Shown: positions 104-62,956 of the stretch, piece after piece | Numbering within the stretch: the stretch's first letter is position 1 | Layout: every line of letters starts with the position of its first letter | Origin: Paraspadella gotoi | Lineage: Eukaryota; Animalia; Chaetognatha | DNA length: 64,000 bases | Direction: 5' to 3' | NCBI GenBank assembly: GCA_051294375.1 | Contig: CM119270.1 | Coordinates: 959,238 to 1,023,237 of the forward strand | Notes under the pieces: model-generated | Databases searched by the model: none | Told to the model about the DNA's origin: nothing | The model's input: only the letters and a program-made list of their open reading frames with translations | Program-made: the position numbers and the translations under genes

Positions 104-3100
104 TCCCGACGCTCCGACGGCCTTCGACGTCGGAGCCCTCAACTCCCCACTCGAGGACGACCTGGTGCAAGAGGCCTTAAGGAAAGGGACCGATCTCCGC
201 CAATACTCCAAGCAGATCGAGCAAGAGCTTCAAGACGTCGAGAATGCCTCCATCTCTGGTTCCAAAAAAATAGCCTTTTTATTTTCTTTCCTTTATTTAT
301 ATTTTGACTCCTCTTCCCTCTTTATCCCCAGACTTCATCAAGGAGGCCTCCAATATCGCCAGCCTCCACGAACAGATCTGCTCCGTGGACGGGATCCTCG
401 GCCGCATGGAGAGCATGCTCCACGGTTTCCAGGAGGATCTGGGAAACATTTCCTCGCAGATCCAAACTCTGCAGCAGCAGTCGGTCAACATGAACCTCCG
501 CCTGAAGAATCGCCAGGCGGTGAAGGGAGAGTTGAGCCAATTCGTGGACGAGATGGTCATCGGCGACACTCTCGTCGAGGCCATCCTCGAGCTGCCCGTC
601 ACGGACCGGGCTTTTCTCGAGAACCTTCACGAACTCCATCACAAGATAAACTTCGCCAAGGAACAGTCCTTCAAGGAGGCCCGGTCCTGCGGCGATATCA
701 AGGACGTGCTGGAGAAGCTCAAATTCAAGGCCGTCGCTAAGATTCGCGAGTTTTTGCTGGGAAAGATCGCGGCCTTCAAGAAGCCGATGGCTAATTACCA
801 GGTGAAGGAAGAGATATTGTGTGGCAGCAAGACTTAAAGCTGCCTCACTGCTGTCCGTCCTCAGCCTCGTCTCAATAGCTGAGCAGGCTAAATCATCTGT
901 CTCCATCATCTGTCTCCATGATTGCAACCGTTCCTCTCGGGTTCAATCCCTGGGTATCCCGGTTCTGGCTTAAATGTGACGGAGCCGGTCACTGAAAGTC
1001 CGCAGCCCGTACGCCCGTTGGTGAGATACCCCGCGCCCTGGGTATCACAGGCAATCCTCCCGTTGCCATAATAGCACTTTTTTCAAAATTTAAATAGATT
1101 TCGAGCTCTTCAATTTTATCGACATATAGTAGTAATTTAAAACAACAGTATCGCCTTACTGGATAGCTAAAACTCACTGACAGCGTCGAAACTCTCCTCC
1201 TCTCAAAATATACTAAGCCGGACACGGAAGCGATTGTGTTCTGCTTTCCAAATGAGGAAGCCAATAGCCGTTTCATTATCCGTCCGATTATTTCCTCACT
1301 CACTATATTCCTCTTGATAGTTAAATTAGTTATTTTATATTAACTTCATTATTTCAAAACCCCCCCCTTTTCTCCCAGGTCCCCCAAAACGCCCTCCTCA
1401 AATCCCGCTTCTTCTTCGAGTTCCTCCTCGCCCATCAACGCGACGTCGCCAAGGAGATCAAGGAAGAGTACGTGGACACTCTCTCCAAAGTCTACTACTC
1501 CTACTTCAAGAGCTACCTCTCCCGCTTGACCCGGCTCCAGTTCGAGGAGGCGCCGGACCGTGACGACCTTCTGGGCGTGGAGGAAGGCGCCAAGCGAAGC
1601 CTCTTCGCCGCCAAGCCCGTCCTCAAGAACCGCTCCACCATCTTCACGCTGGAGTCGCGCGGGGAGGTGCTCGGGGAGGTGGAGGCGCCCATCATCGTGC
1701 CCCACGCCGCCGCGGATAACAAGACCAAGTGAAGGGGATTGACTGGAACCTGAGAAAATGGTTTTTAAAACTAACATAAGATCAAAAATCAAAATCCAGA
1801 TATCCCTTCGAGGCCCTCTTCCGCAGTCACCAATACGCCGTCCTGGACAATTGCTGCAGGGAATACCTTTTCCTCTGCGACTTTTTCATGGTGACGCCGT
1901 CGTCGTCTCAGGCTTTCGATCTTTTCACCGACGTCTTCGATCGAACCCTCGCCGTCTTCCTCAAACACGTGGACGGATTCACGTCGGAGACTTACGACAC
2001 CTTTGCCCTTTTACTCTGCTTGCATCTCTGTTTTAGGTTCGCGGGGAGGGATGATTCTTGTGCGTTGATTGCAGTCTTCATGTTGTCAATGATTTATGGA
2101 GAAGTCGCATATAATTTCGTAGTATAAATAAGAGCTAGTTTAGAAATCCCAATTACACAGTTCCGTGAATTAATTATATTAAAGGTGTCACGAGTTCTGT
2201 TCTTTTCTGTTCTCTTTCAATATGCGACCTATTTTGGGTTTTGCGATGTGTAACACGACTCTTTACTATTATATTCAAATGAGATTGAATTTTTGAAAGG
2301 AAGACCTCCGGGCGATTAATCGAATCTCTTCTTTTTAATTCCTCCCTCGCCAAAGGTTCCGCTCCCTGTGCCACAATCGCGGCGTGGCGGCGCTGAACAA
2401 ATACTGGATCGCGGTGGAGAAATATCTCTGGCGCCGGTTGGAGTTCGTCGTCAATCTCCACGTGGAGAGCGTGAGGACGACAGATCCGAGCAAGTTGGGC
2501 GTCATCGAGACCCGGCCGCACTACATCGCCAGGAGATACGCAGGTTGGTGGAAGAAGGAAATGAATCCAAACCAAAAGAATCGATGAATCCGATGGAAAT
2601 CCGATCCAGAGTTCAGCGGCTCGATCCTCTCGGTCAACACGACGTGGCCGTCAGAGGCCGTGACTCGGGCGTTGGCCAAACTCCAGGTGGAGGTAGAGAA
2701 CTTTGTGCTGCGGATGGCGGCCGAGTTTCCGCAGCGACGGGAGCAGCTCGTCTTTCTCATCAACAACTACGACATGCTTATCAGGTTGGATGATGTTGTT
2801 CTTCTTCTTGTATCCTGAAACTTGAAAGGCGTTCATCCATTTTGAGACTGCTTCGCTCTCATTGCTGTTGTCGCAAATCGTTTTCTTTGTCTTCGTCGTT
2901 GTCGTCGTTGACGTTAATTAACGATGGACAATGATAAAGGTGATGACAAAGGTAATGACGGATACGATGACAAATATTCAATAAGTCAATAATAATTTTT
3001 TGAAGGGTTCACTCTTGAGAGTCGATGTTCGAAATCCCTCGGAAATCCTTTGGCTTTGCCGTCGACCCCTTAAGTCTCTATGTCGGTTATTGGTCAGTCT

Positions 3101-5171: not shown

Positions 5172-8100
5172 ATGGCGAGCCCCAGCCTGCCGCCCGTCTC
5201 CCTCAAGAACGGGCACCGGGTTCAAGTGTCGGGCAAAGACTCGACTGGCACGGTGGCCTTCGTGGGCACGACCCAGTTCGCGACGGGCAAGTGGATCGGC
5301 GTCGTCCTCGACAAACCAGAGGGGAAGAACAACGGAACCGTCCAGGGGAAGAAGTATTTCTCCTCTCCCGATAATCACGGCATCTTCGTGCGGCAGGTGA
5401 GGTTTTTTTGGGGGTGAGGTGGGTCGGCTTAAGTAGGGAGGAGATCCTGTGGCGGTATATTCACACCGCCCCACGTCCACCATCCTTCAGCCAAATCCAT
5501 TGGCTCAGAGGGGGAACACACCATCCCAGGCGTAGTGTTCCATCCACAGTCCTAACGACTTCCCTCTGCGTTGGCAAAGCGAGACCGTCCTAGGGTAACC
5601 GCGCCAGTGACTGGAGGCGTCACTGAGGGTCGGAAGCCCCCAAACTTGGGCCAAAGCCAACAGTGAGATGCCCCATCCCAATGGGCATCACAGGCAACCC
5701 GGCTGTTGCCATAATGTCATGTTAAAAAGTAATGATGATTGAGTTATCGTATTTTCCCCTTTGAGTTTGAACAAAAACATTTTGTTTCTTCATGTGTAAA
5801 ATTGTGCTTTACATCGCTCCATCCAGAGAAAGTTGTTCAATGAAACATAATTTTCTGCATTATGCAAATGATATTATTAAACTTTCATCTCCCCATTCTC
5901 AGAGTCAACTCATCTTGCTCACCCCAATGGACGGAGCAGGAGGAGGAATTCCCTTGAGCGCCTCTCGCGATTCCCTCTCTGGTTCCGGACGCGACGGCGG
6001 CAGCCCTTCCGCTCATGCCACGCCCCCGAGCGGCGGCTCCAAGTCCGCCTCTCGCGAGTCTCTCTCCATGGAACGCGCCAAGTCGACTCTCAGCTCTGGC
6101 GGCGCCGATCGACCCTCCAAGATCTCGTCGGCGGCCAAGACGCCCGCGTCTAGCATCTCAAAAATTCGACGCCAGCGCAGCAGCCTGATGCCGGATACGT
6201 CGCCGGCCGCTGCGACGACGACCGAGAAGAAGACGGAGAAGGAAAAGGCGAATAAGAAGGAGTCATCGGGTGGGGAAGAAGCTGGCGGCGGCGGCGGCGG
6301 CTCGTCCTCTGCTGTGCAGGCGATGACCGACGCAGTCTCCGCCAGTCTCGAAACGTTGCAGCTGAGGCAGGAAAACGAAGGTATGATGATAATATTTAAT
6401 AATGGAATAATATTTAATTAAATAATTTTTCTAACTTTTCTTAGAGCTGAAGAACGAAGCCCAGGACCTGAAGGAAAAATTGGAGACGCTGAAACTGAAG
6501 CGACAAGAGGACAAAGTCAAGTTGAAGGAGTTGGACAAGACCAAGATCCAGTTGGAAGAGTTGCAACGCTACAAGGTCAAGATGCAAGAATCCAACGCCG
6601 ATTTGCAGAAACAAATGCAAAACTCCAAGAGAGAGGCCAAGGACACTCAGGTTTGCCGATGGATTGGGTGTGGATGTAATATTGTGTTAAATTTAAATTG
6701 AATTATATATCAATTTAATTAGGAAATAAGTTTTTATTAGCAGAAAAACAACGATCTGTTTTGACAATAAATCGTTGTTTTTCCGCCAATAAAAACTTAT
6801 TTCCTAATTTAAAACGCAACGAAAAGAGAGATTAAACACAATAAATTTGAATTGCTATATTATTTGTTTTTTCTACGCAGGAAGCCTTCGATGCTTACAA
6901 AGAGGAAATGGCCGAAGTGGCGGAGTCAATGGAGATCGCCACGCTTGACAAGGAGATGGCTGAGGAGAAGGCGAGTGTGAATGAATGTGTGAGAGTGTGA
7001 ATGAATGAATAAACGTCCGAATGGATATGTCATTAAAAGATGTCGAAGAGAAGAGTGCGTGTAGGGAAGAATTTGACTCTATGAATGTCCATGTGAATGA
7101 ATGAATGCGTGTGAGAAAGAAGGAATTTGCGAATGAGTCGATGAATTTGCTAGCGACTTATCAAGCCTTATTATTCAATATATATAAATTTAAGCAAAAA
7201 GAGTAAAACGAAGAATCCAAAATCGCCACGAATGCTCTTTTGTCACGGCTAGTCCGGTATATCGCGCGTTTATCAGAGAAAAAACGAAATAAAAACAAAA
7301 GACAAACGAAAGAAAAAACTGTACAAAAGTCGGCGCCGATCCGCCGACCAATCAGCGCCCGCCCTGGAGCGGGAGCCAGTCCTCTTCGACATCCGGGCTT
7401 ACGAAAAGCTCACTCGTCCCTAGCAGTCCCCGGAGTCGAAACTCCACGAAACATCTCTGCAGTAAAAACGGAAGAAAGTCTGCGCTCCAGACCAATCTCC
7501 CGCTCGAAGGATGACGCCAAGATCCACTCCACGAGCGAAAGCCTCCGAGACCGCCATGGCCCGCGTTGAGCCAGGCGGCGCTGAAACGTCTGCCTCCAAG
7601 AAGAGAGCCTTGAGAATAGCCGCGAAGCGCTGCGTCGAGAGAGGTCTAAATATAGATATTGGGGTGCAGAACAGGAAATCGTGCGGCGGTGAAACAGAAG
7701 AACGAACTGCCAGCCAACTCCGTAAGGCTTCCACTGGGCATCTTGAAAAAATCTGGAAGGGCATCCAAGCGAAAGGCCGGCCCTTATGCCCGCACCCTAT
7801 CAAGTCTTGGAGAACGAAAGATGCCCGGCGTCGCAACGATGAGGAAAACTGATCGGCGAAGAATATCCCTCGGAGATGCTGGAAGAGGCGCCGAGTCGAG
7901 AATCNNNNNNNNNNNNNNNNNNNNNNNNNCTGCCGGACGCCTGCCTGGCCGCTCAGTTCGACGCGGCTTTCTCCGGCCGGGCCAACGCCGCCACTCTCCG
8001 GGCCCTCACGCGCACTATGCAGGAAGCGGGTGCCGCCGCACATGCAGTGCTTCATGCAGCGGATGAGCTTCGTTCTCTCAAATCTTCGGTTCTTGCGGGC

Positions 8101-11100
8101 TTGCCGAGGGATCAGATCGCAGAGGCTATTGATGATCTGGCCTCGCCTCTTAGCGACGTTGCTGCCTTTCAAGCGGCGGCTTTCAACTCGGCCATCAGCG
8201 ATGTACGTAAGACGGTTCTTGCCTCCGTTTCAACGGATTTGAGAGCAGCGCTTTCACGGGCCCCGCCCACTGTCGACTCCTTTTTCGGAAATCAGTCTTC
8301 CCAGATTGCTTCGGCGCTCAATTCGTCGCTCTTGCGCAACGTCTCTCGTCAGAGCAGTCGGATGATCGTCGCCCTCGCTTTCGCCCTAAGTCGCAATACA
8401 AGCCGAGAAAGGGTTTCAAGAAGACCTTTCCTCGCAAGAAATCGGGAAACGGCGAGGGCAGGGGCGACAAGACTTCAAAGTGACGCCCTCCTCCAGGACC
8501 TCGGTCGCCGCCTCGTCCGACCGTTTTGGCCCATTTAGACACGGATCCGCCCACGGACTGGATTTTGGACTCGGACCCTCCCCTCCCCGCCCTCCGCCCG
8601 GAGGCTCCAGTGGGAGGTCGTCTTCACCTCTTCCGCGATTTCTGGATTTCTCTCGTCGGAGAGGACTCCCTTTTACAGAACATTTCGGGCTTTCGCATCG
8701 GGGAGGAGGAGATTCCCGTTCGCCTTCCCCGTTCTTCGGACGAGACTCCACTTTTCGGAGATCGAGATGCAGTGTCGACGCCGAGATCTCTGCAGCGTTG
8801 GAAAAGGGCGCCATCGAGGAAGTCGACGAGTCTCCGGTTTTTATTCAAAGATCTTTCTTGTCCCAAAAAAGGATGGAGGTTGGCGCCCAATCTTGAACCT
8901 CAAGAAACTCAACGCCAAGTATCTCGACCCCCTTACTTTCGCATGGAGGGGGCTCAGGATGTCAAGAAGATGTTTCGTCGAGGGGATTGGGGGTCGTCGA
9001 TCGACCTTCGCGACGCTTACTTGCATCTTCCGCTTCACAAGGAGGATCGGAGATACTGCCGCTTCATTTGGAAGGGACGGATCTTCCAATACAGGGTCCT
9101 CCCCTTTGGCCTCGCAACGGGCCCGTGGTCTTCACCAAGACGACGAGGCCCTTGGTTCAGTGGCTTCGTCAGAGAGGCATCAGATGTCTTTTTTATATCG
9201 ACATTCTGATCCTGGCAGCGACAGAAGAGGATTGTCAACGTGCAACTTTGATGGCCGCTCGTCTGCTCAAGGAGGCCGGTTTCATCCTCCACCTGCAGAA
9301 GCGATTTTGCCCTGCCACGCTTGACTCCTGGATCACATGGCCTCTCCCACACGGTAGCCCTACCGTCGTCAAGAGAGGAGACCATTCAATCTCTGGCATC
9401 ATCGATCATCATGGACCCTTCGCCATCGGCTCGACGCCTCCTTCAACTGCTGGGTCACGCGACAGCAGCCTCCATGGCTTCCCCACTTCTCCGCTGTCGG
9501 TCTCGCGGATTCAGCGGGATGTGAACCAAGTCTACAAGTCGGACTCGACCTCAACCAGATCGTTCACCTCCGGGATCCGGCACTGGAGGAACTTCGCTGG
9601 ATGGCGGAGTTGTCAGAGGATCTCTGCTTCGCGCCTATCGACACTCTCCTTCCAGAAGCTTGCAAGCTCCAGGTCACGACGGATGCCTCGACCCAGGGGT
9701 GGGGCCTCCTTTTTCAAGGTCGTCTTCTGAGGGGGAAGTGGAAGGGTGCGGATGCCCTTCTCCATATCAATGTGAAGGAGTTCATGGTGCTTCGTCTCTT
9801 CCTCCAGCGATTCGGTTCCTCACACAGAGATTCGTCGATCCTTTGAAGACAGACAGTCTGGTTCCTCACCTGCCTTCGTCGGGGATCCAGCAGATCCCCG
9901 GTTCTCCACGAAGTTGTCCGGGACACTCTTTTATTGGCCCACAACTTCAAGATTCGCCTCACGGGAGTCCACATCGCCTCGGAGGAGAACCTCGTCACGG
10001 ATGCGGCTTCAAGGGGTCGCAAAGTAGCGGATTGGAAGCTCTTCCAAGAGTCTTCAAGCAGATTGTAGACCGCTTCGGCCTTCCCAACAATCGATCTATT
10101 TGCGACGTCGGCGTCAACTCAAGTTCCACGTTTTTTCGCTTGGGAAGCGTCTCCCAAAGCGGAGGGAGTGGATGCATTGGCCCAAGTTTGGGCCTTCGAC
10201 CTAGCGTACCTTTTCCTCCGCCTCCGTTACTGGCGATGGTGATCCGCAAGTTGGAGGACGCCAAGGGAGTCTTCCTCCTGATAACCCCTTTCTGGCCAGC
10301 GCAGAAATGGTTCCCAGCCTTCTCAATCTTCAGATTCTGGACGCGAGGCGACTTCCGACGCCAGACAAGCTCGTCATAGACCTCGTCACCGGTCTCCCTC
10401 CTCCACAGGCGGAGCGCTTCAAGCTCGTCATCTGGAAGATTTCAGGAGGCTCCACCGCCTCGCAGATGTCGACGACTCCACCTTCTCCATCATTGCTGAC
10501 AGCTGGCGAGGTTCCACCAGGGAGCGTTACGCTCGCGCTTGGGACTCCTTCCGCTCCTTCCTTCAGGACCGTGGAGTACAAGGACTTACAGCCTCTGTAG
10601 AAGACGTTCTCGACTATTTGGGCCAACTCTGCGAACGTGGCCTTTCTTCAGTACGATCAATCTTCATCGATCGGCTATTTCTTCTACGCTCCCCCCCATG
10701 GAGGGATTGCCTGTTGGGGAGCTTCCAGTTGTTCGCCGTTTGCTCAAGGGAGTTTTCGAGAGGCGCCCTCCTTCCGTCGACTCTTCCCGCCGTGGAATGC
10801 AGCTTCTGTTTTTGCAGATTCTCGACTCGGCGCCTCTTCCAGCATCTCCGAGGGATCTTCTTCGCCGATCAGTTTTCCTCACGCCCTAGCTTCGCTCGGC
10901 GCCCTTCGGAGCTGCTCCTTGTTGCGACGCCGGCATCTTTCGTTGGCTTCGGATCACGTGCGTTTTGTCCCTTCGAAGCTCTCCAAGACTGATAGGGTGG
11001 GGCATATGGGCCCGGCCTTTCGCTTTGGATGCCCTTCCGCGATCTTTCAAGATGCCCAGTGGAAGCCTTACGGAGTTGGCTGGCAGTTCGTTCTTCGGTT

Positions 11101-14100
11101 TCACCGCCGCACGATTTCCCTGTTCTGCGCCCCAATATATCCATTTAGACCTCTCTCGACGCAGCGCTTCGCGGCTATTCTCAAGGCTCTCTTCTTGGAG
11201 GCCAGACGTTTCAGCGCCGCCTGGCTCAACGCGGGCCATGGCGGTCCTCGGAGGCTTTCGCTCGTGGAGTGGATCTTGGCGTCATCCTTCGAGCGGGAGA
11301 TTGGTCTGGACGCAGACTTTCTTCCGTTTTTACTGCAGAGATGTTTCGTGGAGTTCGACTCCGGGGACTGCTAGGGACGAGTGAGCTTTTCGTAGCCCGG
11401 ATGTCGAAGAGGACTGGCTCCCGCTCCAGGGCGGGCGCTGATTGGTCGGGCGGATCGGCGCCGACTTTTGTACAGTTTTTTCTTTCGTTTGTCTTTTGTT
11501 TTTATTTCGTTTTTTCTCTGATAAACGCGCGATATACCGGACTAGCCGTACAAAAGAGCATTCGTGGCGAGGCGGACCGATGAGAATCTGTATTCCATTC
11601 GAATTTTGGATTTCCCCTTATTCGTTCTGAAGCTGTCATTTGGCTTGACAAACTTCTCTGAGGAGAGTCAGTAGGTTACGACAAGGTGATTAGAGGGCAT
11701 TGGTGCTTATTGCCTTTTCCAGAAGGTCTCCCTCTGTCTCAGCGAGCGAGACGGGGAGTCATTGTGCGGCCAGTGGTGGTTTGGGATTCATCCACCACCA
11801 TGATTTAGGGAAGGTTCAGGTTCAAGAGATTGACTTGTTTCCATCTTATTCAGTTTTTTATTTTTTATGGTTATATGTCTTTACACCATATTTTTTCTCT
11901 ATTTATAAACAATATATATGGTATTATTGATTAGGTATCTGACATTAAAATACAATGAAAGTTCATCAGGCGGGACAAACTCCGACGGTGATGAGGAGTC
12001 GACCCAACGACGCAAACGAGCGGGAGCAACGCGATGGCGAGAATCCCAAGCGTCGGAAAGCACTCCCGATGAACCGACATGACGTAGGGAGCGCCACTGG
12101 TCCAGCACCCAATCGGACGGCAGAGGCGCAGAACGGGCAGAAGGCACAAAATCCTCAAAGCCGCCCGCGACGTCTGAATCAGAAGAATCTTCCTCCTCCT
12201 CCGACGAATAGTGAGCATCCGGGTCCGGGGCGGTGTGGGACCGCTGCGACCAGTGGCGCTTAGGTGCTGGTCCTTCAGAACGCGAGGACGAGGCGGACTT
12301 GCCAATGGGGGACCGGCCTCTGGAGTCGGAACAGCAAGGAGTTGAGCGAGAAGGCGAAGAGGGGCGTAGAATAAACCGGACCGATGAAGGATCGTCACAT
12401 AAAAAAGAAACGTAAAAAACAGGAATTAGACATTAATTCATTTCTAAAAAAAAAACGCCAAAACCCTCCCCCCCTCCCTCTCCCCAACCCAAGCCCAGTC
12501 CTCCAAGCCACGAGAAAAAAAGGGTGGTGAACCAAAAAGGGGCGGAAGGCGGGTCTCGTGGCGAGGCGGACCGATGAAGAATCTGTATTCCATTCGGAAT
12601 TTTGGATTCTATCATCGGTCCGCCTCGCCACGAATGCTCCCTAACGAGAAGGCGAAGTGTTGGGGAAAAAATCGAAAGAGAAAAATAAAGGGAGAAACAA
12701 AAAAGGGGAGGCGAGGCGAACGTAACCAAAGGATACGTAACTAAATTTAAACTACTGAAAAAACGACGAACAAAATAAACTCACCGTCGTAAATCCTCCA
12801 AGTGGTGCCGCGTATCGCGGCGGTGCTCGTCAAACTCCTTCCTCATGCTGTTCAGCGACGACGTAAGAGTCGCTAGGAGCGACTCCAGTCCTCCAGTCTC
12901 GGCGCCCGGAAAATTCGACGGGGCTGTTAACTGGCCGCCACGAGGCCCAGGCTCCGGAGCGGGAGGGGCGGTGGAGGTGGTGGTGGCGGCGGGGGAGAGA
13001 CCACTCGAGTCCCGCTGGACCCCTCTCCCCCTGCAGGGGCCTCTCTTCAGGGCGGGCGCTGATTGGTCGGCGGATCGGCGCCGACTTTTGTACAGTTTTT
13101 TCTTTTGTTTGTCTTTTGTTTTTATTTCGTTTTTTCTCTGATAAACGCGCGATATACCGGACTAGCCGTGACAAAAGAGCATTCGTGGCGAGGCGGACCG
13201 ATGATAGAATTCCCTCCACGGTCAATCCCTCCATTCATTCTCTCTCTCTCTCTCTCTTTCAGGCGGAAACTCTCCAGACGGAACTGGATCTCCTCAAAGA
13301 GAAAAACGAGGAACTCAGCGTCGAACTCGAGTTGATGAAGGAGGAGATCGACAGCGGCGGGCTCGGCGGCGGCGGGAGCGGCGAAGGCGGCGGCGTGACC
13401 ACTTATCAGATGAAGCAGCTGGAGCAGCAGAACGACAGGCTCAAAGAGGCGTTGATGAAGTTCCGTGATTTGTCCCAACATGAAAAGCAGGAGAACGTTC
13501 GATTGATCAAGGCGAGTTTTGTGAGAAGAATCGTGTGTGAAGGCTGAAGCGTTTGGTGAGGGGGGGAGGGCTATTTTATCGGGTATAAATTTTGGTGAAA
13601 TCGCGAATAGACTTTGGAAATGTGGATTTAATCTCTTGTGGCATTATATGTCATTTTTAAGGAAAGATATTTATAATTTGAATAAGATTTTTTTAATGCT
13701 AGATATGACAACTTTGTGATTTTCATCCCCTTCTTCCGTCTTATTCCGCCGATAGGACAAAGACGTGGCCAACGAACAGATCAAAAAGTTGAGTCGGGAA
13801 AAAGAGAGTTTGTCCCGACATGTGGCCGACATGGAGAAGGAGATGGGAGACATGAAAGAACAGGTCAGTATAAATCTACTCCATTTATTTTACATTAGTA
13901 GCAAAGGCCTTTCTGAATTCAACTAAAAAACTATACGTGCATAATACAATTTTGCGCCATCCGAAAATCGGATATCAGTTGATTAAAAGTTCTCTCGAGC
14001 TGAATGGATTGAGTGAAGAGGTAAGTTTGTTAGGTGAACTTATTTCAAATTTTTAAAGGAAGCTAACGAAGCTAATGACATAGTTGGATTACATTAGTCA

Positions 14101-17100
14101 TGTCTCATGTAGTCCATTTTAGGCCAATTTCAATTCGCCTAATACGCAGTAAGATAACTGATGAGAATTAAAAATGGTTCATTTTTGAATCAGGAATTTT
14201 CATTTTTCTTTTTTATTAGCTTAGGTCACGTTTTCAGGGCTGCATAGTCTTAAGAATTAATTGAGATATGCTTTAATCGATAGAAATTGGTGATGGCAAT
14301 TTTGGTTTGAAAACGATATCAAAGTGTAATATTTCTATGGAAATGATGTAGCAGAATAATTTGTAGATTATTTCAAATGAGATTAAGTTTTTGATTTGAT
14401 ATCCTGCTAATAATGATAACTCGAAAATATTAAACATACTTTATTATGAAAGGCATGTTAATAATCGGTGATTAATCGAACAACATGAGTTAACGACAAA
14501 ATACAAATGACATTTAAAAGTTATTTCCAATTTAATTGTTGAAATGATCATTCGTCCCACCTCATACGGTTCCCACTTGTCCCATCCCACGCCCACCTTT
14601 ACCTCTGCCCCCCTCCCTGCCCTAAAAGGTGGACGCGGCTCTTGGCGCGGAGGAGATGGTGGAACTCTTGACGGAACGCAACCTGCAGCTCGAAGAAAAG
14701 GTGGCCGAGATGCAAGAGAGCTTGGACGATCTCGAGGCCATGAACGAGATGAACGAGGAGCTGCAGGAGAACGCCCGAGAGACTGAGATGGAGCTGCGCG
14801 AGGAGTTGGACCTCAACAGCGCGAAGATGCACGAGAGTCACCGACAGTTGGAGGCGACCAAGTACACCATCGCCGACTACGAGGCCACCGTGCAAAAGTT
14901 TAGGGATCTGGTCGCGCAGCTGCAGGAGCAGATAAGGGAGCTGCGGGAGGAGTCGTCCACCTCGGCGACTGGAGCGACGACGGCCGCCGCCGCTGCAGCC
15001 GCTTCGGAAGCAGCCGCCATTGAATTTGATTTTAAGGTGTGCAAGGGGGGGGGTAGTTGGTGAAAGCAAGTGAGAGCGAATCGCGGGGGAATTCTCGTTA
15101 ATTCTTTGTCTTTGCCTTTTTTTTTCTTTTCTTTACTTTTTATTATAATAAATTTGAATTTAATATACCAATCTTTTGACAAATTAAGAGTCAAACTCAT
15201 ATTCTTAACCAGGATATATCTTCATTCCTTCCGCAGACCAAATTCGCCGAGACGAAGGCCTATTCTCAAACGATCCAGATGGAGCTTCGTTCTCTCGATC
15301 TGGAACAGAGCTACCATCAGGTCAAGCTGCTCACTTCCTTCATGCCAGACAGCTTCTTTAGACGGGGCGGGGATCACGACGCTTTGCAAGTCCTGCTGCT
15401 CATTCCTCGTGAGTTTTTAATTCGTTGGATGTCGGATGAGTTTTTAGTTTTTTTTGTTTTGGCTATAGTTATACTATACTATACTATACTATACTATAGT
15501 TATACTTATTAAGTATAAGTATAGTAAAATATACTTATGGCCGCAACGAGCCAGCGCGAGGTGGAAAATTCTACCGAGATTTAAACAAAGAGCCGAATTG
15601 ATTTAGAAAATTATCTTTTATTCTTTATTATATTTTTATTTTGTCTTATCCTTCTTCTTTATTTCTCGTTACATTAAATTGGCATTAATCTTCTCTAATA
15701 AAGTGAAATTAAAATTCGGGTGAATGCCAACTCCCGCGCTCTCGGTTTGCCGATCGAGGCTTCTTAAGATCCTCCACGCCGGATTCGCCCATTCCTTGGG
15801 TTGGGAGATGGTGAGAGAAGAGATGGGGGACGAAATGAAGAGAGAGGGAGAGAGAGACAGACAGACTGACTACTAACCCCCTTGTCCCGCCATTCCTTCG
15901 TTGATGATGCCATCGTTGACCACCGGCTTGGCTGACGTTCTATCCCACAATCAAAATGAGAGAAATCTTAAAAAGATGGATGATATCGTCTTGCTCATAT
16001 TCTCCCAACAGAAAAAAAAAACCTTGCTGATCTGATGGTTTCTGCCAGGCTCTTCGTCTCAAGATGAATCGTCTGAAGGTCCGACGGAGTTTGCGGCAGC
16101 TTTCGATTTTTTGTCTGTAAAAATTTTAAAAAACCTTACCAAGTGGTAAAATTGTCCATGAAATTGGTAAGGCGCAACAATGTATATGCTTTTATCAAAT
16201 AAAATTAAATGAATGTACCAATTTCATAAAATTCAGATCCTTGTATTGTGATGCTAGCGCGGGTATCATATAGTATTCCCCGATCTAATACTTAAGGGAG
16301 TGGTCTTTTCATACAATTGAAACATTCTTTGAAATATTATACCACTTCATTGATAGGGAAGCCAAGTACTCTGAGAGAGTCTTGATTGAAAGCTTGCAGG
16401 GACCTGCTATGTCTTTATCTTGTAAGAGTGATGGAGGCCTTAATCCACCAAAGCCTGTCCAATGTCAGATAGCTTATTTATTAAATGAATGGATAATTTT
16501 TATATTGGATGTACCAATTTCTTAAATAGGCTATATTTTCCGTGACATTGCACAAACTGTGGTGAGTTTAGGCCTCCATCCCTCTTACAATATATTAAGA
16601 GTCCCTGCAAGCTTTGTGGCTTATTATCTCCCAAAGCACCTTTTTTTATCAATGAAGTAGTATAATAGTTTTTAGACGGATCTGCTAATCAGCAGATCCC
16701 TGCTTTATAATCCACTTTGTCTGTCCGTCGGTCCGAACCCTAAATCTTGTCGATAAATCAGAATATAGAATTATGATAAATTATGCAAAAAAAAAAATAT
16801 GTCCGTCTGTTTGTATGTCCGTCCGTCCCCCCTTGGCATTAAAATCAAATTAAAGGATTGATAGATGGATGGATGGCTTTGAAGGAAATTTTGTGTATTG
16901 GTAGGAAAGTGTTTGATTGAGCTGGTTAAGTTTCGATGGAATAAAAAAGGAAATTGCAAGATTAATCATAACATCTCAATCGCTGCTTACCGCTAAATCC
17001 CCGTGTGCAGATCCGGCGTTGTTTGCTCAAACTTGTTTTGATTATCACCTCTCTTCGCTAACCCCTCCTCGCTAACCCCTCCTCACTCACCTCTCCTCGC

Positions 17101-20100
17101 TCACCGCTCCTCGATCACCTCTCTTCACTCACCTCTGGCAAGAGCCATGTGAGTCCAGCGCACACGAGCGTCAAAGTTCCGAAAAGAGTCACGATGATTT
17201 CGGGATGAGTTTTGAACAGAGTGGGTCTTCAATCCAAAACAAAATTAAAAGGAATTCAATTCGTACATATAACTAAGTTTAAAGAGAACTAAATGAATTA
17301 ATAAATAGACCGTTCATTAAACGGCAGTCCGTGCTCTTTTTATCAAGACTGTAGCATCAGGCTTCTGGCGGGTTAAACGCCCCATTCCACTCAACTCGAG
17401 GCAGCCACCGGGCGAGAACCCTGGACCTTAGGCTTGAGAGACGAACGCATTGCGTCCGGCTCCCACGGTCTCCATAAAAGGTTAAAATATCATTAAATAC
17501 TGATTTTAGTTTAAAGCAAAACTTACGACAAGGTTGAAAATATCGTGAATATTCTGGCTATGGCGGAGCATATACCCATCATCGTCGTTCTCACCGTCGT
17601 CGGGAACACCTTTTCGTTGGGGAGTGAGATGGGAGAATGGGTAAGAATAGCTGAGCTGATATCATTTGCCGATTAGTTCTTTTTTACCTCTGTCTGAAAG
17701 AGATTGACCAAAAGAACGGCCGCAGTCACGGCCAATTTTCCCATTAAGTAAAACACGTATTTTGCGATTACCGGAAGATTTTTCTGAATGAAATTCCACG
17801 TTCCCATCACGAGGAATGGAAGTCCTGTTGGACAAGTTCTCAATCAATTAATTGGTCGCCGAAAAAATGCTTTGGTCTCAAACCAACCGGCCATCATGAA
17901 CACTAGAGACACGCCCACTCGTCTTGGACATTTTCTGTCGAGAATAAAGCAAAGAGCTGGGACCGGAATCTCTGCCAAACCGAGCAGAATCATGTTCACG
18001 TGTCTGGGGAATGGGATTATACGTCACGTTATTAACTTTAAATCCCAACACGAATCTCGATACTCGATAATGTCTGACCTGTCGCTTTTGAACAGTTCGT
18101 TTGAGCTAAGCGCCAGCGCATAGTAGTAGATAACGACGATGGTTCTCATGAAGATAAATAAAAAAAGGCAACGCCACAAAACTATGAGCGAAAAAGGTAA
18201 CGCCACAAAACTATGAGCGAAAAATAGGAACGCTACAAAAAATACAGTGCAAAAAAAGAAGTGCAAATAAAAAAGCGTCAATGAAATACAAAATTAAAGT
18301 AGTGTCGCATCAATTATGAAAAAGAAATATCGCCTTCAAAATAATAATATAGCAAGATAGCTTATTTATTAGATGAATGGATAATTTTTATATTGATTGT
18401 ACCAATTTCATAATATCATAATATAATATAATATTAAACTGACCCGGCGTCATTTTCCGCTTCTTCTTCGCCTGGTAGTCTGTCAGAATCCCTTGCTCGC
18501 TCTCCCCGCTTAACGTCCCGCTGATCGACTTTTGCGATTTGTTACTCTCTAGCAGATTCAATTTCAATACTGGAAGAAAAAAAAAATTTCGTTGTATGCT
18601 ATTTATATGATCAATTGATCATTCACTTGCCGTTTTAAGTGACTGTAATTTATTTTCATAAGTCAGTCTTACACTCTTACGTCGTTTATGGAGTCGTTGT
18701 AAATGTGTGCATAGTATTTGTGGTATCATAGTGTATCTCCTATCGGATATCGTTCTCCTCGTTACGGTTTTCTTTTTATCGTCGCAATCGCTTGCGCTTC
18801 CGACGATTATGGAATAATGGTCTCAATAAATGGAGTCGTCGTCGTTTGCATTTCAAATTATATTATATTTTTATATTATTTGTATTTGTATGAAGCTAAA
18901 AATTTAGGTATATATTCTCATCATCAAGGTCCTTGAAGACTGATGAGGTGATGTATTAAATCATATAATAAACATATTATAAAAAAAAGTTTCAGCATCG
19001 AACTCGCGATCGCAGTCGCGCATGTTATCATTTTACCATCTTTCACCATTCTTTTTTCAATCCATCATCTCTCATACATTTATTCATTCAATTTTTTTAA
19101 TTAAATTAAATTAATTAAATTCGTTCAATTTAATTATTTCAGTTTATACTTTTAAATTAATTTATTCATTATAATTTATTTATCTCAATTCTTTCAATTA
19201 TTAAAATTAAATTTTAAATTTAATTCATTTATTCATTCAATTTTGAGTGAATGTGTTTGTCATGTGTCGAGTTTTTTTTTATGTTATTTATTTTTTTGTT
19301 ATTTATTTATTCTGTTGTGGCTAAATGAATTCCGCAATGTACCTTTTATCTCTTTTGACGTATTCTTGTCTCTATTTCTGCCTCTGAATGATACTTTCTT
19401 GCTCTCTGTACTGTTTATTAAAAAATAAAATATATTGGTTGTACCAATTTTATATAAAAGATACTGTGGCGAATCTTAAATTCGCCTCCCGTATAGCCTG
19501 GTGAAACTCAGCTCGTCACATTGGCTTGGGCAGCTAAGTACTCGTTAACCAACCGTGAGTTCCGGGTTCAATCCCCTCACGGTCACGCTGGTTAAAGTTT
19601 GATGGTGTCGGCATAAACACGCCAGTGACATGGTCCAAAGCCCTGAGCGCCAGCTGTCGGGAGATGCCTCACACCCCAGGCATCACACATGCCCCTCCGT
19701 TACCATAATACAAGCTTAAAATTAAGTGACCTCTTTGTGCTGCCCCTCCTGAGTCGAGGCGCTCTTGATCCACCGCCACGTGTCGCCGAGGTCGACGAGG
19801 AATCCAGATTCTCGTCAAACTTTGGCGTTGACGGAACCGTGGAGAAGTTGCCAATTTCCAAGGTCTTTTCATACTCTAGCTCCTCTTTTACCGCCACCAG
19901 TTCCGTGATGTTTTTGGGGTTGCACTTGATGGTCGCCTCTACGATTTTCTAGCAAATAAAATGGGTCTAGTTCTTGTGGATGTATTTTATGATTGGCTTA
20001 ACCATGTTCTGGTAAATGAGATTGGTCGATGTCTGATGCTGTGAGTGTTACATCTTTACGATTCTCATTCGCGACAACATGAATGTAGGACTACTATGAT

Positions 20101-23100
20101 GGTATCAAACCTATTTGCTACAAATACATTAAAGGCATGTTGTTCGCTAATCTCCAAGCCAAATTATTCATCTCAAGTAATATCCAATTTTACTCTTGCC
20201 TTAAGGGTTTTCCTCGCCATTATTTCAAAGTCCCGATATAAAATCGGGTCCGACTTGTACTGGTTGAGCTGCCACCGGATGCTCTCTGGGATCGTAAATA
20301 TTAAGCCGAAAGCGACCACAAAGAGAATCGCCTCGTACCAAAGCCACGGTCGCCATTTGGGAATAACTGATCGTGGGATAGTGTTGCCCGGGATGGGGAA
20401 GGGTCATGTTGGGCAGGGATTTGAGAAGGGGTTGAGAGGATTAATGCCGTTTTCGTATATATCAACGAAGGAAGTAGTACTTAAATGATATTTTGAGCAT
20501 AAATGTTCATTTTTCAATCAATAGGTACTTTCTTTTTATTTAATTGTCTTTTTATGCTTTTCCAACAAAACCTGAAGATAAAACTTCTGTTGTGTTTGTA
20601 GTTAATTTTAACTCCAAACTGGATCTAGACGATATATTGAATTCTCGTCCTCATTTATTTGGTTTTCTTTCTTTCTCACCGTAAGACGAAACAGGTAGAG
20701 TGATTTGCGCCGTCGTCGTCGCTGTCTGCGCCACCATCGCCATCCAGATTCGTCGATGCGGCGGATTCATCTCATACATCAAAACCGTGCCCACTCCTGG
20801 TGGCCAAATGACAAGGGGAATATTCTGGCAACAGCCTGGCTGCCTGTGATGCGCGGCTGTAGCATCAGAAAGTAGTTAGGACTGTGAATGGAACCAACCG
20901 GTCAGCGTTGCGTAGCCCATTCCACCGAGAAAACGCATTGTGATGAGAACGATAGAGCTAGAGCTGAGAGCCATCATCGAGTCGACAAATATAAAGGCAA
21001 AGCACATCCCAGCGATGACTGGTTTTCGACCTGTAGGGGATGTCGAGGTCACAAATAAAATTACTGCTTTTCTATAATATTAGTATATTAGCTAATGTTT
21101 AAAATAAGCAAATAAAAATCTACTGAGAGACTTGCCAAGTCATACTTTCTCTGGATCGAGCCACAATAAAGTGACAACCTCACCGATGAGAGCCTGCGTC
21201 CGCGGGCGACAACGAGGGACGCCGCTGCCAGTTTTACCCAGTAGCTGCGCTACGGGGGAAGGAACCTTGGCACGATGAGTGTGCACTACTCTACCGATGG
21301 TGTCGGCGGCCGGCACGCAGATAATGTAGGCAAAGGCGCTACCGATGAAGTAAAACGCGTCTTCAAGTCTCACGATATAAGAGCGAGAGCAAATGGAGTC
21401 GAAGGTCATGACGGTGGTTTCATCGGAGGGCGACTGGTAGAACAGGCTGCGGTCGAAGGTGGAAGGGAAGAGGAGTCATAATCATTAGATTTTGTCAATA
21501 ATCTTGGTCCTAATTTTTATCCTCATCTTAATTTTTGGCGGCCACCTGGAGTCGTTTAAGACGCATTTAGGGAAGTCCTTCACTACGCCCAATTCTGAGC
21601 ATGCGGGCTTGGCCGGTTTGTCCTCCATGTAGCGCGTTCTCACGCAGTCATTTTTTTTTGGACAGAGTTTTTTCATGTCCTTAAACTTGAAGTTTAAACT
21701 GTCCTCGGCTTTGTATGGGAAGGTTCCTATCAGGAATGGAACTTGAAAGTTTTAAACTGCCAAGATAGTTCAGGTTGTCAAATCAGTAAATGAGTAAATT
21801 TATTGAAAAACGACTGCACTTGTCCATTTAATTGAAGGATAATAAATAAATAAATTGATAATGATAATTGATAATCCTTCTGACCGGAATCGTTGACGAC
21901 GGCGCAGAACATCGGGGGAAACCAAGAGAGGAGCGGGACCTTCTGCAGGTTGTGGACGGTGAGGTGGAGGGCGAGGAAGAGGACGATGCAGAGCCGGAGC
22001 GGGTAAACCCTCGAACATCCCAGCGCAGTGAAGACCTGATCCAAAATCATCACCCCTTTTTTTTCGCTTTACCTCGCGCCTCGATTTTTTTAACGAAGTT
22101 TTATGTTCTAATTCTTTAAACCTTTTTTTCTCGTTGCTCTTTTTTTTTAAACCGAGTATGGAAGCGCTACTTATGCTCGATTTATTAAAAGTTTGTTGCT
22201 TAATTCCACCTTTTCTCGCTGAGCCCCCGAGAAAAAAAGATGGTTTATATGTTAAGCGGCAATCGATATTTATATGACTCATAGCTAGGGCCTCAGAGAG
22301 AGTCACGTGACTAACCCACTTATCAGCCCACTAGGTTTTCTCACTTTCTACATTGTTAATCATATAGAGAGAGAGAGACAGGCAAACTTTTGTTTACTCT
22401 CCACTTTCGCCCCACCGAATCAGGCATGATTAAAAAGGCGGAACTCCTGTCTTCCCAAATCGTGAACAAATTCGAGATTCCCGAGGAAATGGAAAGAGCT
22501 CACGTCTTCCTCTCCTCAAAGGGCGAACAGGCCTCCTTCGCCTGCGCCCTCGTCTATCAACTCGCGCGCCTGGTCGCCATCCTCTCGCGCTACGAGACCA
22601 GCCTGGCCACCTGCCCCGTGCACCTTTACTTGAAAGTGGGGACTCTGTTCCAAGTGAGTCGGCGCGCAATTCGCCAATTGAGATAATTGAGATCAATTTC
22701 CGTGTCTTTTAATTGGAGGTTTGAATTATAATTTCACGGTTACTTCCAATAAGATTTTTAATCATTTAGTTTTTTTCAAACAAACATATCGACGTTTTAT
22801 TATAAAATTAGAGCTCAACTTCTCTTTCTCTTTTTCCCATCCCAAAGGAACTCTCCATCCACGAGAAATGTCTCGACTACTTGACCGAACTCCTTCGCAA
22901 AGATCAACTGGATGAGACCATCAGCCTGGACAACCTCGAGAAATCCCTCGCCTTCTTCCACCACCTCTACAACGTGCACCTGGCTTCTGATCAACCCGCG
23001 TCGGGCGAGGGCGACGCCGCTTCCCGCCCGCTGCGGTGCACGCGCCTTCTGACCAATCACGTGCGACTGGTGCAGGCGGCGGCCGACTGCGTGCACGCCG

Positions 23101-32700: not shown

Positions 32701-35700
32701 CACTGACATATAAAATGAAATAAACAAAATTGTTTAAAGATATTTTATAATTTTTTTTGCATTAAATGTTTCACCAACTTGACTTTCCATTATTCAAGTT
32801 AGAGCATTCCGCTGCTGCTGCTGCTGCTGCAGCAATTTCAAAGCTGCTCGTTTTTGAGTAATCGTTTTCAAGCCTCTGTCACAATCATATTTGACGTAAT
32901 ATGATTATGGAATATTAATATATGATAGACGAGTCGCCTAATTTTTAGTTATTGAATATCATATCATAACAGCGTGACTGCTCTCTGACGGGATGTGGTC
33001 ACGAATCCACAGTGAATAGGCAATGGGTTGATGAAGCGACACTCCTGAGAAAAGAGTTTTAATTGTCGACCACAAGGGGTGTTCTCCACACGAAGATGAA
33101 TAGGACGATGCACCACTGTTGGAGGGTGATTGTTGTGGGCGATTCCGGCGGGCGCCGGCCGGGCTTGAGAAGCACGAGACCCTCCAACGGGTGGACCACA
33201 ATGTCAGTTAACCACTCGGTCGACCACAATGTTGCCCACTGTGTAGGATCGGGGGACCAGAGATGTGGACGCGATCCGGAAAGCGTAAGCGAACACTGTG
33301 GAAGCGGCGATTTTTGAAGAACCCGAAACCGGGAGCGATAGAAAAATTGAGAATAAAGATTGAACCCGGAAGCTATAATAACCCTGCGTGTTCGCTTCCT
33401 GGTCATTTGTTTTTATTGGTTAGAAATGAAAGGTATTTAATGTATTAAAAATCTTTGCAACCCCCTGTTTTTCTTGATTTTTCTTATTAAAATTTTTTTT
33501 CAATATTTAAATTTGTTTGTTCTTATTTTTTTATTCACTTTTTTCTTATTCTCTTCTTTTATTTTTGGTTTTTCTTTTGTATTCTCTTCCTCTTGGTCGA
33601 GAATCTATGAAAAAAATTACATATTTATTTTTTTAATTATCTTTTTAATATATTAAATTAAAATCTGAGCTGAAACAAATATTTTTTCTATCTGAAAAAA
33701 AACTGTAATTATAAGTTAAATTAAAAATATAAATGAAAATTTTTTAATTCTATAAAACTAAAAAATTATTTTTTATATTTTTGTTATTTTTTTTTTTAAT
33801 TTAAGACTACCAAACAAGTTTGAGCAACAATGCCGGATCTGCCCACGATCATTATCGGATAATTAATTTAGTTGAAAAATAATAAATTATTTAATTATTA
33901 CATTCTGGTGGTCCTATCACCACAGATGGATTAAAGCTGTTTCTTTCACAGCGCCTCAGTGGCTCAGTGGACTAATGCACCCTCCAATTGTCGTCCCTGG
34001 TTCGAGCCCTGAGGTTGTCATGTAGAAAGTGGGATGGACCGGGTAACCCGCCTGTAGGCATGGGCCTACTGCCAGATCCAAAGCTCTGGACTACATGAAC
34101 ATGCTGTCTCGCTGTCCCCACGAGGTGACACCGCTGCGGGTGTGGCGCCCTGTAAAACCAGCCTCAATGGTGAGCCCGACGTGATACGAACACGCAACCA
34201 ACCGGGATGATAATACTCCTCTGCCTTGATGTGGTTTGAGCTACGCAGCTGCCACTCAAAGCAGGCCACCAGAATGAAGAGAGGTTCAGCGGAGAGACAT
34301 GCGCTTCATCCCCCTGCTTCGTACTCTCATATGCGAGAGTCCTGGGGGCGGCTGTCTGTGGTCCTATCACCACAGATGGATTAAAGCTTTTCTTTCACAG
34401 CGCCTCAGTGGCTCAGTGGACTAATGCACCATCCCAATGTGCGTCCCTGGTTCGAGCCCTGAGGTTGTCATGTAGAAAGTGGGATGGACCGGGTAACCCG
34501 CCTGTAGGCATGGGCCTACTGCCAGATCCAAAGCTCTGGACTACATGAACATGCTGTCTCGCTGTCCCCACGAGGTGACACCGCTGCGGGTGTGCGCGCC
34601 CTGTAAAACCAGCCTCTTCAACATATTTATTAATTAAAAGAATAACATCGAACATTTGGCAGCTCAAATGATTTGAACAAAGACGATAACGACGACGAAT
34701 ATATGACGAAGACAACCCGTAGTACAGTAGTGGTCAATAAGAATGACCTGTTCATACCCAACCTTATTATGGCTAACCTAATGTAAATACTAGTTGTTAT
34801 TATTTTATCATTTTTGCTTGTTTGTTTTTTCGTTTTTTTTATATAATTATGACAAAAGAAATGACGACCATGATGATGATGACGAGGAAACACCGTCATG
34901 ATTAATGAATAATTGATTGATCAATTAAATGAAATTCATATCAGGCCTGTTAGTTTTTAGGTCTTTTCGTCAGGTCACTGACCAAGACAAAAGCAAAAAC
35001 GACGTTGGAGATGACGACAATGTTAATACTGACATTGTTTAATTGATTAATTGATTAATTAATTAATTGGTTCTTTTAATAATTTATTGATAAATAAATT
35101 TTTAATTAGTGAATGTTAAATTAATTGATTAATTAAATTATTGATAAATAAAAAAATTGATTCATTAATTTTTTGATTGATTAGTTGATTAGTTAATTGA
35201 TTGATTGATTAATTGATTAATTAAATAATTAATGCAGTTTGTATTTACATTTAATAAAAGAAAAAAGCAAATATGAAACAGGTTTTTTTTTAATTTAAAT
35301 TTATTTCCACAAAAACGATTCTTACAATCTTACAATTTTTCATAGTAAAAATTTTACTTGTTAAGATTGTTTAAAATTATTCTACCAATGAATTACATGT
35401 CTAAAGAGAATATTTTTTTAAATAATAAAAAATGTAAAATTTATAAAAGAAGGAAGCGATGTGCACTCGAACCGAAAGCGATCCGGGCTAAAAAAGTAAG
35501 GATTGCACCCGAAAACGGGAGCGGGAGGGGCTTGGAAGCGCCGCGCGGATTGGCAGCGGCGGAAAAATCGATCGCTTCCACATCTCTGCGGGGGACGCCA
35601 TCCTAGATTAGACAACACTCGAACGCGTTCTTTCTTATTAACACGAAGCTCACAAGGCTGTAAAACTGACTACAATAATATTAATTAATAATCATTGTAT

Positions 35701-57772: not shown

Positions 57773-58988
<1,216 letters not shown>

Positions 58989-62300: not shown

Positions 62301-62956
62301 TTAGAAATAGATCACAATAGTTTTTAATGCTTTTAATTATAAAAAAATTAACTATGTTAATTAATTTAAAAAACCATTTAAAATTTTCAAATATTTTTAT
62401 TATCATGATTAAAATATGTAATCCTTAAAAAAATAGTAAATTATTATTTGAAAATATTAAAAAAGACAATTTAAAAATCTTAGCTCTTTAACACCCCTGG
62501 CTTAAGCCCTATGAATATTTTAAAAATAGTTGAATATGATAAATTAAAAGCATTATCATTAGTAATTAACTTGATTAATGATAATTATATTAAAAAAAAA
62601 AAAGAAAAAAGCTAAAAAATATTCATAAAAGGTGAAATTCCATATTTTGGCTCTTTAACACCCCTGGCTCGGGCGAAAAAGTTTTTTTTTTTAAATAAAA
62701 CTTTTTTAGTTAAAAAGAGCTTGGAAAAACGAACAGAATGACACCGAGACTGGTTGTTTATTTAAAACATTGTCGGATTCAAATGTGTCTATTAGACACA
62801 AGGTTGAGACAGAGAATGATTTATTCTCTCAAAAAGTGAAAAGCAATAACAAGATCAATACTACGTCGGGTCACTATTTACAGGACAAAGGAACAAACAT
62901 AAGGACATGTTCAGGACATGGTAAAACAAAGGATAAGTCGTGAAACCCGTTGGTGA

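Follow-up and report, generated by a model that had tools for sequence, protein, structure and literature searches.

What kind of element carries the twister-like ribozyme module that recurs along contig CM119270.1 of the chaetognath Paraspadella gotoi, and what might the module do for its carrier? In the window, the 64,000 nt of this contig that we analysed, a first-pass annotation had described the layout stem-AAA-P2′-GA-NNN-P1-UAA-P2-GC-P3-P4-U-NNN-AAGC-P4′-stem at 5570-5661, 19587-19654, 34018-34098 and 34468-34548, had interpreted it as a twister fold that compensatory change maintained while the repeat families diverged, and had taken the carriers for short interspersed nuclear elements (SINEs). 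We found that the modules at 34018 and 34468 lie in the two long terminal repeats (LTRs) of one 717-bp element, which is a terminal-repeat retrotransposon in miniature (TRIM) of the Helenus type (family B). The modules at 19587 and 5570, and a remnant near 970, lie in elements that resemble solo LTRs (family A).

The module is, with high confidence, twister-derived. A descriptor without a requirement for the T1 pseudoknot, composed after the sites had been seen, matched the window at exactly the four annotated positions. At all four, T1 is paired 3/3, and the P4 and P5 stems are no shorter than 2 and 5 bp, respectively. Across 500 block-wise dinucleotide shuffles the same descriptor gave 60 matches, one with T1 paired 3/3 and none with T1, P4 and P5 together. 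The unpaired letters of the twister core (UAA, GC, U-NNN-AAGC, AAA and GA) stand in the correct order at 4/4 sites, as judged against the Rfam twister-P1 consensus and Table 1 of PMC8501958. T1 is complementary in the three states that had been claimed, reading CCG/CGG at 5570, TGG/CCA at 19587, 34018 and 34468, and CGG/CCG in the 970 remnant. In an alignment of five cores (four distinct rows, from which the structure was itself derived; the cores of 34018 and 34468 are identical and, being in one element, not independent), T1 is paired in 12/12 cells and T2 in 6/6. Paired cells make up 87.8% of this alignment vs 76.2% after shuffling (4/500 shuffles as high), and two-sided change is seen in 6/12 pairs (0/500 shuffles as high); the number of further pair types is unremarkable (123/500 shuffles as high). 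At the scale of four distinct rows, the shuffle tests give modest support to the proposal that compensatory change kept the fold.

The companion claim, that the stems differ in sequence and still pair, stood for T1 and fell short for P2 and P3. P2 has a mismatch at 5570 (3/4 pairs) and at 19587, P3 of the latter is shortened by a deletion, and P2 at 34018 and 34468 has only 3 bp. For comparison at the family level we used public contigs from four of the 11 listed runs (X1, X2, X5 and X9), aligned to two stretches; the comparison covers the TRIM and the 19587 family, with the 5570 and 970 subfamilies outside it. At the mismatched P2 position of 19587 the pairing base makes up 98% of the depth in X1, X2 and X5 and 99% in X9, P2 forms 4/4 pairs in most contigs of the 19587 family, and most of the family contigs hold ~14 extra bases in P3. 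Since P2 and P3 are intact in most of the family, this copy is damaged and the family is not. We consider it likely that intact copies encode an active ribozyme, catalysis being predicted from the letters of the core and its helices. Type-P5 twister ribozymes were reportedly described by Roth et al. in 2014. The module resembles them in block order, in RNA ends at P5, in the UAA, GC, AAGC, AAA and GA letters and in having T1 and T2 (permutations named in PMC10085705 and PMC6765202). It differs from them in having no Rfam match, a loopless palindromic P1 and, in family B, the 3-bp P2.

The TRIM was recognized from direct repeats around the modules at 34018 and 34468 (260 bp, 97.7% identity in self-BLAST), in which the two cores and the 70 nt upstream of them are nearly identical. 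An internal part of 188 bp separates the repeats. The element lies on the sense strand of a DIS3L2 intron, between exons that end at 32525 and start at 37134 (tblastn). Boxes A and B of an RNA polymerase III (Pol III) promoter (TRGCY..YGG and GGTTC) stand upstream of the ribozyme in each LTR, at 33960/33999 in LTR1 and 34409/34449 in LTR2; only these promoter boxes are evident, ARAGORN finding 0 tRNAs in the window and Rfam none either. The element starts ~55 nt upstream of the A box, both here and in the 19587 family. No open reading frame (ORF) of at least 130 aa overlaps the TRIM. Other family-B copies have this same first base, preceded by unrelated flanking sequence that ends in ATAT (11 contigs in X1, 8 in X2). 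No contig among those aligned spans the whole TRIM, and pieces across the LTR-internal junctions, having <31 letters on one side, were not counted as bridges.

Helenus elements (TRIMp3; PMC10886601) are likewise non-coding and <1 kb long, with A/B boxes in the LTR, a primer-binding site (PBS) as well as a polypurine tract (PPT). In animals their target-site duplications (TSDs) are 4 bp long, and they have PBSs in common with Gypsy elements; solo LTRs are many, a Gypsy partner has been inferred, and at least one wasp family has a tRNA-Trp PBS. Two LTRs, a length below 1 kb, a PBS, A/B boxes, a 4-bp TSD and the absence of an ORF are all found in the TRIM, and we hold it very likely that the family-B carrier is an LTR/TRIM element. 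It departs from published Helenus in the ~170 nt, with ribozyme and hairpins, that follow the B box, in one non-canonical LTR end and in a PBS match of up to 32 nt. This PBS starts one base past LTR1 and is complementary to the 3′ end of tRNA-Trp at 17 of the first 18 nt, or at 29/32 nt when extended past tRNA position 58. The identity was assigned by eye against the human tRNA-Trp probe printed in PMC5737633, with the agreeing primer in PMC7555719, as well as against Fig. S2 of PMC10886601, which gives a tRNA-Trp PBS; for comparison, tRNA-Trp was sought in viral contigs, where one search gave 0 matches and another 36 loci, none of them tRNA-Trp by ARAGORN. The match reaches 14 nt beyond position 58, and its 19th base, opposite position 58, is mismatched and variable in the family. 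Position 58 of tRNAs is usually 1-methyladenosine (m1A), which causes arrest and misincorporation (PMC4787781). The variable base opposite position 58 suggests that the PBS extension may have been copied from a mature tRNA.

These features also bear on the proposed SINE identity. SINEs derived from tRNA have a 3′ tail, a TSD of variable length and a start close to the A box; here the ends are fixed, the TSD is 4 bp and there is no tail. For the two best-defined carriers, with their paired repeats, PBS, fixed ends, 4-bp TSDs and no tail, the identification did not hold, and the remnants at 17390 and 58000, where a tRNA-like head and no LTR ends were seen, may be SINE-like; P2 in them is short as in family B. 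The annotated remnants near 970, 17390 (-), 45820 (-) and 58000 do exist, and a further relative without the ribozyme lies near 20830 (-). Other assignments were rejected: an RTE-type long interspersed nuclear element (LINE) as partner, as there is no tail; a tandem non-LTR retrozyme, by the PBS, TSD and LTR ends; a Helitron, as no matching ends were found; and a partnership with the tyrosine-recombinase element at 7.2-13.2 kb, as self-BLAST found no sequence in common.

Contigs aligned to the 19587 family (2679, 2669, 1490 and 255 in X1, X2, X5 and X9) leave the element at 19465 and 19707/8, continue into unrelated sequence and show no tail. On the left the loose ends number 44, 40, 36 and 9 in the same runs, and on the right 24, 28 and 22 in X1, X2 and X5. 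The elements at 5448-5713 and 820-1070 have terminal motifs and hairpins in common with it, and none of the three copies contains TTTT. The 19587 element thus looks like a solo LTR, as probably do those at 5570 and 970, the solo-LTR step itself being deduced from their ends. For the carrier of family A we regard an LTR/TRIM as probable.

Several further observations concern this family. A long-range fold surrounds its cassette and consists of one hairpin on the 5′ side, two on the 3′ side and a closing helix of 5 bp, both strands of which differ between 970 and 19587. In X9, where the other listed pieces have depths of 3-18, a 1823-nt contig of depth 339 includes a family-A piece (positions 167-316 of the contig) and may be a longer element carrying a family-A LTR. 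Relative to the ribozyme strand, the non-canonical LTR end is on the 5′ side in family B (33904) and on the 3′ side in family A (19707, 5713 and 1070). The two end motifs are near reverse complements, and in one of the families the orientation of the cassette may be opposite to that of the LTR. The four larger carriers (820-1070, 5448-5713, 19465-19707 and 33904-34620) are all in host genes (Vps52, dynactin or DIS3L2) and on the sense strand of these; dynactin domains were found at 5202 and 22812.

Table 1. Positions of the retroelements, their parts and remnants in the 64,000-nt window.
Feature	Position	Strand	Support and remarks
Complete TRIM (family B): LTR1, internal part, LTR2	33904..34620, 717 bp	+	Self-BLAST, family contigs
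Target-site duplication ACAT, 4 bp	33900..33903 and 34621-34624	+	Sequence, exact
LTR1, 263 bp, starts TC (non-canonical), ends CA	33904..34166	+	Ends supported by family contigs
Twister-like module of LTR1, P5-type permutation	34018..34098	+	P1 segment 34038-34043 palindromic; P2 3 bp + bulge
Candidate PBS for tRNA-Trp	34168..34199	+	By-eye complementarity to tRNA-Trp 3′ end
Putative polypurine tract, G-rich, imperfect, adjoins LTR2	34336..34354	+	Sequence
LTR2, 266 bp	34355..34620	+	97.7% identical to LTR1 over 260 bp
Twister-like module of LTR2, same as that of LTR1	34468..34548	+	Sequence
Solo-LTR-like element (family A), 243 bp, ends TG...TA, B box 19565	19465..19707	+	Dynactin gene region; TSD ATAC 19461-64 and 19708-11
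Twister-like module	19587..19654	+	P1 segment 19606-13 full palindrome; P2 mismatch, shortened P3
Solo-LTR-like element, diverged family-A subfamily	5448..5713	+	Terminal motifs as in family A; flanks match 2/4; directly after dynactin CAP-Gly exon
Twister-like module, T1 CCG/CGG, P3 7 bp, P5 6 bp	5570..5661	+	P1 segment 5588-95 full palindrome; P2 3/4
Family-A solo-LTR-like remnant in Vps52 intron	820..1070	+	Ribozyme without UAA-P2-GC; T1 CGG/CCG; flanks match 3/4
Family-A remnant with 3′ hairpins and terminal motif, without ribozyme	20820..21055	-	Self-BLAST, sequence; boundaries approximate
Short remnant of 970 subfamily, B box to T1′	45816..45860	-	Self-BLAST, sequence
Decayed tRNA-like head and family-B-type twister (P2 CCC), core letters lost	17315..17475	-	No LTR ends seen; boundaries approximate
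Decayed B box and 3′ half of family-B-type twister	57955..58062	+	No LTR ends seen; boundaries approximate

To gauge abundance, we divided summed depth by the median depth at single-contig joints, a ratio that gives orders of magnitude and not copy number. In X1, X2 and X5 the ratio for family A is ~1,900-2,900; in family B the core has 1,000-3,000 and the internal part 70-330. This suggests roughly 2,000 copies for each of the two families, and contig depth thereby bears out the expectation of large genome-wide families.

How could such an element use its ribozymes? With modest confidence we favor the reading that this Helenus-type TRIM works as an animal LTR retrozyme, in which a twister replaces the hammerhead and a Gypsy partner provides mobility, through the following full cycle. 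Pol III would start at the tRNA-like head of LTR1 and read into LTR2; TTTT is absent from the A box of LTR1 up to 34388. Both ribozymes would then cut. By the U-A rule (PMC8501958) the cuts are predicted at 34044/34045 in LTR1 and 34494/34495 in LTR2, 450 nt apart, and at 19614/19615 and 5596/5597 in the other two copies. The product would be a 450-nt RNA without a terminal repeat, which a host ligase would circularize. Priming by tRNA-Trp would follow, and a Gypsy (CsRn1-like) element would copy and integrate the sequence. In plant retrozymes the lack of a terminal repeat is overcome in this manner, by circularization, after which priming by tRNA and reverse transcription by Gypsy take place (PMC4918200, PMC7761336). 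A tRNA-Trp PBS and a 4-bp TSD are typical of the CsRn1 Gypsy lineage (PMC3630058), and the relevant passages of PMC3587641 contain no Trp link. Folded as a circle, the predicted monomer is 64% paired, a value without a shuffle control. The reading predicts the exact ends of the RNA as well as a circle of 450 nt, and so a twister function can be put to a direct test.

The P1 segments are even-length palindromes that self-pair 4/4 at 5570 and 19587, 2/3 in the TRIM and 3/3 at 17390; these copies are of common ancestry and so not independent. In the window, 2.1% of 8-mers and 4.8% of whole 6-mers are palindromic, and 12% of 6-mers are so at their inner two pairs. No hairpin is predicted for the isolated segments, and homoduplexes of the intact copies have energies of -8.1 to -11.0 kcal/mol. 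Every readable P1 is a palindrome with too few bases for hairpin closure, so that the ribozymes of the two LTRs may adopt the fold of a swapped dimer, for which dimeric hammerheads are a precedent (PMC7229834). In fold computations, with pseudoknots outside the model, the minimum free energy (MFE) structure of 33948-34620 is a swapped double twister with P5, P2 and P1 exchanged between the LTRs, and P1 is the sole part of LTR1 (7/201 positions) that pairs with its own counterpart in 2/3 folds. A twister that counts LTRs is therefore conceivable, if somewhat doubtful: its loopless palindromic P1 would be unable to close as a hairpin, and it would fold only when both LTR copies of one transcript swap strands through P1. 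Since P1 would need a partner LTR, solo LTRs would cut poorly. If this is true, cutting and the ends to be joined would meet only in full-length elements, and thousands of intronic solo LTRs would stay silent. An active monomeric ribozyme in the sense-strand carriers would cut host pre-mRNA.

A number of results weigh against these proposals. With regard to the dimer, the P1-P1 pairing is gone from the third fold, which includes the first 44 nt of LTR1, and the dimer gain of the core (~-12.3 kcal/mol) is unexceptional beside other 80-nt windows of the element (n=64), for which the median is -9.2 and the best value -16.1. With regard to the module, the covariance-model matches that had been named as a test did not appear. 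Rfam scans of the whole window and local scans found no twister reaching threshold, the best score being 15.6 bits vs a gathering threshold of 67.2 (twister-P1, at 5570), with no match at the other copies at E up to 10, and the module is not assigned to any Rfam twister family (clan CL00120). The scans of the window gave no hammerhead match either. A looser descriptor yields 0.58 matches per shuffle (100 shuffles), and the covariation comes from only four distinct rows that also supplied the structure. P2 of 34018 and 34468 is 3 bp with a bulge, with no common variant there in the contigs except, in 13% of X2 depth, a change of UAA at its second A, and nested folds stretch P2 across the catalytic G and T2 bases. 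With regard to the cycle, no autonomous partner was seen. The PPT is weak and interrupted, weaker than published Helenus PPTs (PMC10886601). LTR2 of this copy has TTTT at 34388, ahead of the second ribozyme, which LTR1 does not have at that place. A near-monomer (the 450-nt stretch shifted by 10 nt) folds only slightly better than shuffles (z -1.5, 7/100). For family A neither an internal part nor a PBS was seen, and the 5′ end of the family-B LTR is shallower in depth than the core.

In pattern searches elsewhere, viral sequences gave 0 twister-like relatives, and a metagenome search gave 7 matches with T1 paired in 0/7, which we treated as chance. A search for canonical P5 twisters as a control set gave 5 matches (1 viral, 4 genome), of which 0 were recognized by Rfam, with P2 at 1-3/4 pairs.

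The same TRIM might instead replicate in the ordinary LTR manner, an explanation that we give a minor share of the probability. The ribozyme would then trim the 3′ end in LTR2 only, replacing the T-run terminator of Helenus; the LTR1 copy would be slow, a short terminal repeat would survive and no circle would be needed. In most of the published animal Helenus LTRs the tRNA-like part is soon followed by a stretch rich in T, in the place that the ribozyme occupies here, and a PBS and a PPT suffice for a standard cycle (PMC10886601). Selective cutting would, however, need an extra rule, both cores and their upstream 70 nt being nearly identical, and a swapped dimer would make the two sites at once.

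It is also unlikely, on the present evidence, that the twister is a mere passenger. On this account a twister-bearing tRNA SINE was inserted in a TRIM LTR, many of the dispersed copies are SINEs, and the ribozyme serves the SINE and not the TRIM. SINE insertion was proposed by Kojima as the origin of Helenus-type LTRs (PMC10886601), the tRNA-like head is the starting point of a few contigs (3 in X5, 1 in X9), no LTR ends were seen for the 17390 and 58000 remnants, and at 34391 the depth of the LTR 5′ end is 80-140 times the single-contig depth vs 1,000-3,000 for the core. Some head-only family-B copies may exist. The low depth at 34391, however, coincides with a cluster of differences private to this copy, which there differs from most, and the bin just upstream is several-fold deeper. 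Family A, moreover, has fixed ends, a 4-bp duplication, no tail and a start well upstream of the A box.

A further reading, improbable in our judgment, sees in the module a fossil twister, or a structural mimic that is not catalytic, and has the TRIMs now spread without cutting. The lack of an Rfam match, the 3-bp P2 of family B, a P1 that cannot form in the monomer and the sense-strand position of four carriers inside host genes would all fit such decay. Set against this, the unpaired core letters are all kept though the stems differ between the families, T1 exists in three complementary states, and twisters lacking P1 still cut, inefficiently (PMC8501958). A last alternative concerns family A alone. 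Ginger-type elements are DNA transposons with integrase-like ends and 4-bp duplications, and to see family A as a non-autonomous element of this type, as its short imperfect inverted ends (5/6), 4-bp duplication and unseen internal part might invite, is most implausible given that Pol III boxes, twister, terminal motif and target preference are common to it and the two-LTR element, and that an RNA enzyme is of no obvious use to a DNA transposon.

The retrozyme reading of the TRIM can be set beside the known systems. Plant LTR retrozymes (PMC4918200, PMC7761336) resemble the TRIM in a ribozyme (predicted here) that occupies corresponding sites of the two LTRs, a PBS, a PPT (putative and weak here), a 4-bp TSD and the absence of an ORF, and resemble the present elements in their solo LTRs, a GC content of ~56% and a proposed Gypsy partner. 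The TRIM differs from them in having a twister and not a type III hammerhead, a PBS for tRNA-Trp and not tRNA-Met, Pol III boxes, an animal host and a predicted monomer of 450 nt vs ~700; circles have been shown for the plant elements and are predicted for the TRIM. We therefore describe the TRIM as retrozyme-like in its working and do not file it as a member of the LTR retrozymes. Metazoan non-LTR retrozymes (PMC7229834) share with it an animal host, small size and processing by ribozymes (predicted here), and some of them need dimeric ribozymes to cut well; unlike the TRIM they have by definition no LTR, PBS or PPT, and they carry type I hammerheads in tandem arrays. The T-variant twisters of Schistosoma Perere-3, an RTE LINE, share the twister core, a weak or borrowed P1 and a place inside a retroelement; they are type-P1, lie at the 5′ end of an autonomous LINE and have P1 completed by the target site, whereas the TRIM has P5-type modules inside its LTRs (PMC8501958).

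So far twisters have had one role in retroelements, in RTE LINEs and there at the 5′ end (PMC8501958). Animal retrozymes are stated to have no LTRs, PBS or PPT (PMC7761336, PMC7229834). A ribozyme in both LTRs of a gene-less element has so far been described only in plants, with a different ribozyme; the present finding joins two known kinds, the Helenus TRIM and the LTR retrozyme, in one element. "Twister" and "self-cleav" have 0 occurrences in the Helenus text (PMC10886601), and a motif search of its supplement gave no twister context among the matches listed, where line breaks can hide matches. Literature titles and abstracts yielded no twister in an LTR element, with Repbase, Roth et al. 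2014, subscription papers and bioRxiv supplements outside the scope of that search. If the retrozyme reading is true, this design originated a second time, with a different class of ribozyme, promoter and host kingdom, in a young, high-copy animal TRIM, and with a twister variant that Rfam misses and that is possibly a natural dimer-dependent twister.

The host genes in the window include Vps52, dynactin and DIS3L2. The DIS3L2 exon shows 58-69% identity to most of the 120 matches listed, among which the best are from molluscs and annelids and none is a close relative. A broken tyrosine-recombinase retroelement (DIRS/Ngaro-like) occupies 7223-13210, with weak RVT_1 (8897-9730) and Phage_integrase (7420-8229, -) matches, nested inverted repeats of 96-99% identity and an N run at 7905-7929. 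Palindromic or dispersed repeats resembling miniature inverted-repeat transposable elements lie at 16332-16942, 53408-53836, 36919-37050, 6714-6812 and 60214-62791, and high-depth repeats are also found at 19413-19460 and 34634-34700. Finally, the motif ATGCAAATGA occurs in eight copies in AT-rich non-coding DNA (3783, 5862, 36624, 45569, 48449, 51548, 52615 and 58332), several of them with similar flanks, and is probably a small dispersed repeat.

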